Below are positions 23,496-23,987 of a DNA stretch of 64,000 nt, one piece after another. The stretch's first letter is position 1, and every line of letters begins with the position of its first letter. Origin of the DNA: Escherichia coli (lineage in GTDB: Bacteria > Pseudomonadota > Gammaproteobacteria > Enterobacterales > Enterobacteriaceae). Below the pieces are notes generated by a model. That model did not search any database. It saw nothing but the letters and a program-made list of their open reading frames with translations, and was not told the origin of the DNA. Where the stretch lies: the NCBI RefSeq assembly GCF_045037415.1, contig NZ_CP173438.1; one strand, written 5' to 3'. The position numbers were made by a program, and so were the translations under genes.

Positions 23496-23987
23496 TTAAT
23501 TTCCTTTTAACGGTTTTTTTATCGGTTTTAATAGTGCAGCAAGAGAGGTTGATGTTTCTCCTGTAATAGATGGCGTCGAGCCTTCTGCCAGTGCTGTTAA
23601 ATCCGTGGTGAGATGACCTTCTTTCTCGTGCCTCATCTGCAATGAGGCTGTCTGAGAACCTTCTTCATTCTTACTTGATACACGAGACAGCCCTCTTTTT
23701 TTAATCAAACGGGAATCCTGGAGCTGACGCCCTAAGTCGTCTTCAGCTGCAAGCTTATTTAAATCCGTTTCCAGGCCCAAAACCTGCATCACAGACAAAT
23801 ATGCCCCTATCGTGACCCCTGCACTTCCTGACTCCAGAGAGCGCAATGTTATTGGCGACATCCCAGCACGTTCAGCAACTTGCTTTGCGGTAAGCCTGCG
23901 TCGTAAACGAGCAAGTTTCAGCCGCTCACCAAATTCACTAAGCATCTGATTCGTATAAGGGAGTAACGGTGCTGTTTTTTTACCCAT
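23496..23987 (-). CDS. XRE-family HTH DNA-binding protein (HipB-like) with a long Ser/Thr-rich C-terminal tail
   Basis: 163 aa; N-terminal HTH region ([32 protein letters not shown]) followed by about 90 residues of low-complexity sequence; stop lies 2 nt before the HipA-N ORF start. Confidence 0.7.

Follow-up and report, generated by a model that had tools for sequence, protein, structure and literature searches.

The window, that is, the whole 64,000-nucleotide (64-kb) stretch of Escherichia coli DNA that was analyzed, carries a hipB-like gene at positions 23496 to 23987 of the minus strand, listed among its open reading frames (ORFs) and encoding 163 aa plus a stop codon. The RefSeq annotation of an identical locus confirms the ORF (WP_000516894.1, "helix-turn-helix domain-containing protein"), and the original prediction, which was made from the DNA letters alone, proved exact both in the extent of the ORF and in the C-terminal sequence that it quoted. 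Its assignment of an XRE-type helix-turn-helix (HTH) was confirmed by Pfam. Residues 18 to 75 (window positions 23763 to 23936) matched HTH_31 at 42.8 bits against a cutoff of 27 and HTH_3 at 28.2 bits against a cutoff of 23, and with both scores above the curated thresholds the product was placed among the XRE/Cro-C1 HTH proteins. The hipBA genes are flanked by rplI and an MFS-transporter gene. Many ST131-type E. coli chromosomes match the 2.3-kb region at 100% identity, and the hipB-hipA stretch was found in 1045 of 5426 complete E. coli genomes (~19%). An accessory segment (20806 to 24388) comprising the genes for a FAD-dependent oxidoreductase, the MFS transporter, hipA, and hipB was noted directly after the rplI terminator (24341 to 24367).

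The kinase gene downstream of hipB (hipA, 22226 to 23493, minus strand) was assigned as a pseudogene from its RefSeq flag ("frameshifted"), from the existence of an intact allele, and from the alignment of alleles. A single C is missing from the window between positions 22990 and 22989, so that the sequence reads ...AAAGAG-TAATGG where the intact allele has AAAGAGCTAATGG. With this 1-bp deletion, ...KE-L-MGQKWL... becomes a stop codon that overlaps an ATG, and the resulting ORFs are of 168 aa (22987 to 23493) and 253 aa (22226 to 22987), the latter with the HipA_C domain. The intact 422-aa allele (WP_001173915.1; locus L003, strain FDAARGOS_536) follows hipB and carries HipA_C, and the deletion allele was present in 543 of the 1044 complete E. 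coli genomes that bear the locus. At first sight the arrangement resembles hipBST, since an HTH gene is followed by two ORFs that jointly cover HipA, and hipB had been described in the original prediction as the first gene of a split-HipA operon. In hipBST, however, the division between HipS and HipT falls near residue 100, and the two are kept as separate genes (PMC10627512), whereas the split in the window is a strain-specific deletion at residue 168/169 that about half of the E. coli alleles, and all other genera, lack. The HipBST-like "split HipA" was rejected on account of the deletion, the RefSeq frameshift flag, and the single ORF of ~423 aa in homologues; the two kinase ORFs are one hipA.

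Inactivation of hipA was also observed independently in other strains, by an additional G in a G7 run (L002), by an IS1 insertion (H16, strain Ec55), and by a large deletion (L004). In all of these hipA-inactivated lineages the hipB ORF was open, at 159 to 163 aa; the pattern is one of recurrent toxin loss with the antitoxin kept. Because hipA is frameshifted in the window, HipB is probably no more than an orphan autorepressor in this strain, and any HipA-directed role of its C-terminal tail would be idle here because the kinase is dead.

The intact kinase structurally resembles HipT, S. oneidensis HipA, and K-12 HipA at ~20% identity. When PDB sequences were searched with the kinase, HipT was the sole match and K-12 HipA was not found, and since HipT alone was matched by sequence, the kinase was deduced to belong to a hipBA lineage other than that of K-12. 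HipB itself scored 16.7 bits with the NCBIfam equivalog for K-12-type HipB (NF007271; cutoff, 79) and 30.3 bits with TIGR03070 (couple_hipB; cutoff, 71.65). Judged by sequence, this HTH protein probably serves as antitoxin or regulator, and as autorepressor, in a hipBA module that occupies an accessory E. coli locus and is distinct from K-12 hipBA. PADLOC models for antiphage defense gave generic HTH matches for HipB and none for HipA; a search of the literature returned no paper specific to this E. coli locus, to the HipB of Pseudomonas fluorescens 2P24, or to the structure of the latter discussed below.

A search of 5.8 billion proteins yielded 2362 relatives of HipB. The best matches outside Escherichia were 150 to 175 aa long, with 97 to 100% query coverage and 55 to 70% identity, and came from Salmonella, Serratia, Yersinia, Enterobacter, Erwinia, Burkholderia, Azotobacter, Achromobacter, and Stenotrophomonas; homologues overall ranged from 150 to 280 aa (Enterobacterales, Pseudomonas, Burkholderia, Azotobacter, and other proteobacteria). 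Family members were absent from the phage collection searched, and nine plasmid records contained them. The genome scan, at one genome per species, gave 80 loci, mostly from Pseudomonas with additions from Ramlibacter, Cupriavidus, and Nitrosomonadales, at each of which HipB was 149 to 280 aa long. A full-length HipA ORF (415 to 430 aa, beginning M..IAVYADW) started −4 to +6 nucleotides after hipB in 62 of these 80 loci, and most of the other 18 contained hipA remnants only or were cut by the end of a contig. The same order, hipB and then a HipA of ~423 aa, was seen in the Burkholderia and Serratia contigs examined. The family is thus strictly adjacent to one HipA subfamily, and the window gene is HipB in the sense of Gerdes et al. 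2021, being an HTH gene that lies immediately upstream of a HipA_C kinase gene in the same orientation, although the window kinase itself is frameshifted.

The length of these homologues bears directly on the C-terminal tail, which had been predicted to be unusual. When the family was taken as clusters at 50% identity (155 members at an E value of ≤1e-30), at least 40 residues followed the core in 116 of 125 representatives. The prediction stands against the 88-aa HipB of K-12; within its own family, to judge from these sequences, the long tail is the norm. The homologue alignment that had been proposed as a check accordingly found the tail retained. Because homologues keep the tail, the scenario offered as a refutation, in which homologues lack it and an upstream frameshift or read-through has fused unrelated sequence to the window copy, was excluded.

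Upstream of hipB, the region at 23988 to 24103 (minus strand) is a putative HipB operator and promoter region, assigned by means of a repeat finder, a pattern scan, and the upstream regions of the family. It contains three AATATY-RK-CA boxes (23990 to 23999, 24027 to 24036, and 24082 to 24091), one of which abuts the start codon, together with a perfect 10+10 palindrome, TTATGGCTAT-g-ATAGCCATAA, at 24008 to 24028. The repeat finder additionally identified a 24-nucleotide direct repeat whose copies lie 92 nucleotides apart (23988 to 24011 and 24080 to 24103). Three of the four matches to the box pattern in the 64-kb window fall upstream of hipB, the chance mean being 1.14. Of 78 regions upstream of family hipB genes, spanning Enterobacterales to Burkholderiales, 46 to 47 contained related 7-mers (AGTGCTA, CAGAATA, and ATTCTGG), compared with 0 of 77 control regions. 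A sigma-70 consensus scan of the minus strand gave no convincing hipB promoter.

The folded and conserved part of HipB was assigned to residues 1 to 98 (23694 to 23987, minus strand) from Pfam, from alignments A1 and A4, from AF2, from the crystal structure of a relative, and from pN. Both alignments are highly conserved over the N-terminal peptide, the HTH, and two extra helices, and pN among E. coli alleles is ~0 in this domain. The AF2 model of HipB alone had a pLDDT of 81 to 93 over residues 11 to 80 (~90 in the HTH) and placed helices at residues 72 to 82 and 84 to 98, past the Pfam HTH, where an invariant stretch was also found (D83, G86, R87, L89, Q90, and D91). The original prediction had the tail beginning after about residue 75 and running for ~90 residues. 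A long tail is present, but the fold extends to about residue 98, as indicated by AF2 and by the invariant stretch, and the tail is shortened to ~65 residues.

The sole solved relative is PDB 9U9G (released 2026-04-01), the antitoxin HipB of P. fluorescens 2P24, which matched residues 1 to 105 of the window protein with an E value of 5e-31 as a single sequence and 3.5e-43 as a profile; by Foldseek the TM-score was 0.85 at 62% identity. Together with this homology, the window protein has the MxKKTAPL peptide and the GRxLQD helix that mark the N-terminal part of the long-tail family. The 2P24 protein belongs to the same family, being 153 aa long with a long tail and an adjoining HipA of 418 aa. 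Its chains in 9U9G hold 77 to 85 of the 153 residues deposited, which was taken to mean that the tail is unmodeled in the crystal and fits disorder.

The first 10 residues of HipB (23958 to 23987) are almost invariant across the family even though they precede the HTH, with M1, K4, T5, A6, P7, L8, and P10 invariant in A1. In a model of HipB fused to HipA, described below, a beta-bridge appeared at HipB residue 7 that was absent from the model of HipB alone. On the strength of that model, this extreme N-terminal peptide may be a second peptide in contact with HipA.

Beyond the folded domain, residues 99 to 143 (23559 to 23693, minus strand) were assigned to a disordered, variable linker, or tether, on the evidence of indels, AF2, pN/pS, and 9U9G. 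In A1 and A4 this segment was unalignable, with many indels and without conserved columns. Its length in the family was 37 to 166 aa (median, 49), its composition was rich in A, S, P, R, T, and K, and among E. coli alleles its pN/pS was 0.6 to 1.0. The disorder check that had been proposed was borne out, since in the AF2 model of HipB alone residues 101 to 143 had a pLDDT of <50 and the tail appears to be unmodeled in 9U9G.

Conservation resumes in the last 20 residues. A conserved motif at residues 144 to 163 (23499 to 23558, minus strand) was recognized from A1, the genome loci, the cluster representatives, and AF2, and in E. coli reads E-T145-S-T-S-L149-A-A-L152-L153-K154-P155-I-K-K-P-L-K-G-N. 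It is made up of an N-cap (T145 and S146), an LxxLL core (L149-A-A-L152-L153), K154-P155, and a basic end. In A1 the invariant residue is L149, with T145, L152, L153, K154, and P155 nearly so. Among the genome loci, with the sequences anchored on the motif, the pattern [N/T/S][T/S/A]xx[L/F][S/A]xL[L/I/F/V] followed by K or R was found in 78 of 80, at 7 to 14 residues from the C terminus. Among 103 long-tail cluster representatives, Lxx[LMF][ILVFM] occurred within the last 28 residues in 83, compared with 3 in the first 28 residues of the linker and 7.3 expected from composition-matched shuffles. The window protein thus has the disordered linker and the C-terminal [S/T]xxLxxL[L/I] that characterize the long-tail family. 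For the motif, pN was 0 when the window and L002 alleles were compared with the L003 allele, in which hipA is intact, and AF2 placed a helix at residues 146 to 152 in HipB alone (pLDDT, 57 to 61). The tail peptide found no match among PDB sequences.

From a pN of ~0 for the N-terminal domain and of 0 for the motif, against a pN/pS of 0.6 to 1.0 for the linker, it was concluded that the tail is an unconstrained tether of ~45 residues with a constrained end-piece. The description of the tail as a low-complexity Ser/Thr/Lys-rich sequence had to be restricted in the same way. Residues 96 to 163 contain 25% Ser+Thr and 16% Lys+Arg, compared with 16% and 15% in residues 1 to 75, so that an enrichment exists, of modest extent for Ser/Thr, but low complexity does not continue to the end. 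The view that the whole tail is an evolutionary leftover or a spacer without function would agree with the near neutrality of the linker and with relatives that do without a tail (see below). This was deemed scarcely credible, as the tail and motif are kept in ~90% of the family clusters, in both Gamma- and Betaproteobacteria, and far above the level of the shuffles.

Within the linker, a hypervariable patch was noted (23613 to 23688, minus strand; gene nucleotides 300 to 375, codons 100 to 125) from the comparison of alleles. These 76 nucleotides contain 19 of the 21 hipB substitutions between the window and L003, pS is 0.13 to 0.23 compared with 0.01 to 0.07 in the N-terminal domain, and the three allele types are reticulate. 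The candidates for the origin of the patch are recombination import, old polymorphism, and a local mutation hotspot. The one allele from which most of hipA has been deleted (L004:2966-3445, E. coli EC23HZZ201) carries K154Q and a shortened basic end (…LLQPIKNR*) in the HipB tail, and there is one change in its N-terminal domain. These changes are consistent with a relaxed constraint on the motif sequence after loss of the kinase, as a single, anecdotal case (n=1).

Since the partner is a Ser/Thr kinase, it had been proposed that the tail could be a phosphorylation substrate, in which case HipA would modify its Ser/Thr residues to regulate HipB. The 25% Ser+Thr of the E. coli tail and the semiconserved T145 and S146 would suit such a role. 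The proposal nevertheless found little in its favor across the family and is very unlikely, because the tail has no invariant Ser or Thr: at motif position −8 the residue is N in 33 of 78 sequences, and at position −7 it is A in 15 of 78. In the linker the Ser+Thr content for the family is 19%, typical of disordered regions, and no position is conserved. Phosphorylation of HipB is furthermore not reported in PMC8262856, PMC10627512, or PMC3376134. From their sequence variation, the polar positions preceding the motif helix (N/T/S and T/S/A) resemble a helix N-cap more than they do an obligate acceptor.

The relation of the motif to HipA was explored by structure prediction, in which the repaired window HipA was joined to HipB through a 30-residue GS linker. 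The paired alignment used (A3, 22 species) replaced an unpaired one (A2) in which MAFFT had set HipB rows on HipA (~20% identity). The fusion model was mediocre overall, with a mean pLDDT of 61 and a pTM of 0.54 from a 22-sequence alignment and an artificial GS linker. In this model, HipB residues 77 to 141 had a pLDDT of 25 to 39, while residues 139 to 148 were at 69 and residues 149 to 158 at 78, which is the level of the HTH domain. With the same 22 species and HipA left out, the motif was at 57/61; the rise with HipA is thus modest. A beta-bridge at HipB residues 144 to 145 was seen in the fusion only. The model suggests docking of the motif on HipA but is not decisive.

The closest precedent is K-12 HipB. 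Residues 73 to 88 of that protein are disordered, and W88 occupies a pocket of HipA ~14 Å from the active site (PMC3376134; also PMC10627512 and PMC8262856). Deletion of the K-12 tail left the affinity for HipA and DNA unchanged and abolished degradation by Lon, and binding of HipA blocks Lon (PMC3376134). K-12 HipB (88 aa) and the window protein are alike in that each is the product of an XRE-type HTH gene that immediately precedes the gene for a HipA-family kinase and each has a disordered C-terminal tail. They differ in that the K-12 tail has 16 residues and ends in a single Trp, whereas the ~65-residue tail of the window protein has a helical LxxLL-plus-basic motif at its end. By analogy, the window tail looks like the K-12 design made larger: the tether is longer, and the Trp is replaced by a helical end-piece of the LxxLL type.

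Among classical type II antitoxins (for example, Phd, CcdA, and RelB), a disordered C terminus folds on the toxin and makes the antitoxin protease sensitive. These share with the window protein a folded N-terminal DNA-binding domain and a disordered C terminus. In Phd, CcdA, and RelB, however, the disordered region is the main neutralizing element and adjoins the DNA-binding domain, whereas in the window protein a spacer of ~45 residues separates the domain from a very short motif.

The reading that we tentatively prefer, at a probability of roughly 0.4, is that the tail serves both as a tethered peptide for docking on HipA and as a degron that can be masked. The tether (about residues 99 to 143), unconstrained in sequence and conserved in its presence, ends in a short linear motif, in which Lys/Arg residues come after an amphipathic LxxLL helix with an N-cap. 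We infer physical binding to HipA, a site for this binding, and recognition by a protease in the following manner. In the HipB-HipA complex the motif would fold onto its cognate HipA as a second, tethered contact beside the interface of the HTH domain, and this contact would mask the tail. Once HipB is without HipA, its disordered tail would be exposed and, together with the hydrophobic/basic end, would serve as an entry tag for an ATP-dependent protease, e.g., Lon or ClpXP, and entry via the tail would set the turnover of the antitoxin. The original prediction had also named a docking element or a degron as possible roles of the tail, and these are supported in outline by the conserved motif on a tether, the adjacency to HipA, the AF2 rise, and the K-12 precedent.

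It was also considered that the tail and its hydrophobic/basic end are solely a tag for Lon or ClpXP, with no specific contact to HipA. The K-12 data speak for this, as that tail was needed for Lon degradation without an effect on affinity for HipA or DNA, and the analogy would favor a degron over docking. The tail here is likewise disordered, its motif is hydrophobic and C-terminal, and the motif helix is predicted at moderate confidence even without HipA. It is not obvious, however, why a tag should need a spacer of 37 residues or more, or the specific N-cap and LxxLL register kept from Enterobacterales to Burkholderiales, and the rise in motif confidence and the beta-bridge appear solely in AF2 models with HipA present. 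A degron without docking, although doubtful, is regarded as the main rival of the preferred reading.

Docking in the preferred reading, a tethered contact that is also a degron, has further to be weighed against a group of short-form HipB relatives of 99 to 118 aa that were noticed in Myxococcota and metagenomes (L088, L089, and L091, from Nannocystis, Polyangiaceae, and a metagenome). These proteins stop a few basic residues past the GRxLQD helix, without a linker and without the LxxLL motif, and their genes lie upstream of HipA_C kinases of 398 to 419 aa that are 50 to 52% identical to the E. coli kinase. Comparison of the kinases paired with long-tail and short-form HipB gave scattered differences and no clear docking patch. 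Because short forms still pair with HipA, it was deduced that pairing does not require the tail, which is an accessory of one large clade, and the short forms suggest, from sequence, that the HTH domain alone can partner HipA. Such pairing of motif-less forms with ~50% identical HipA, together with the lack of a docking patch in the kinase comparison, would argue against docking.

The basic end of the motif raises the question of other partners, such as AT-rich flanking DNA (through the Lys/Pro-rich, SPKK-like end), the HTH of the same protein (autoinhibition), a second HipB dimer bound at the neighboring operator, a host protein, or the membrane. In most members the helix is followed by a cluster of basic residues, the operator region, with its three spaced boxes, has a very high AT content, and the short-form relatives likewise end in a few basic residues. 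An amphipathic helix with basic residues after a flexible linker is also a membrane-targeting layout. The most conserved feature is nevertheless the hydrophobic LxxLL face and not the basic residues. In 2P24 HipB (P0121), the terminal motif is TSSELAKKLLGDDDA, with LxxxLL spacing and, unlike that of the window protein, an acidic end (LLGDDDA); because this variant ends acidic, the basic end is not universal. A helix of ~7 residues flanked by proline is short for a membrane anchor, and the motif pLDDT of 57 to 61 in HipB alone argues against stable packing on the HTH. A partner of this kind is thought unlikely.

Control of the kinase mainly by the tethered peptide rather than by the HTH was considered as well, with the LxxLL helix and the Lys/Arg end acting as a pseudosubstrate or plug in the substrate groove or in the pocket of the Gly-rich loop. 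This end is KPIKK in E. coli and K-R-H-G in Burkholderia, and in one lineage only it resembles the KLSKRHG (KMSKS) loop of GltX, which is phosphorylated by K-12 HipA. The proposal is an improbable one; if true, control by a peptide plug would be a new mode of HipA inhibition, in which the near-neutral tether sets the effective concentration of the peptide.

At the level of annotation, the results correct the impression of a HipBST-like split kinase in ST131, in which the kinase gene is a pseudogene and HipB probably an orphan regulator. They also define a large proteobacterial hipBA subfamily that takes in E. coli lineages of the phylogroup B2 type including ST131, Serratia, Pseudomonas, and Burkholderia. 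The HipA kinases founded the class of persistence toxins, and even for K-12 there is still debate over the way in which HipB restrains them. The short-form relatives provide a natural comparison set for the function of the tail, and the tethered motif, a 20-residue peptide with three Leu residues, offers a cheap and precise handle on whether tails of this kind are docking elements, degrons, or both.
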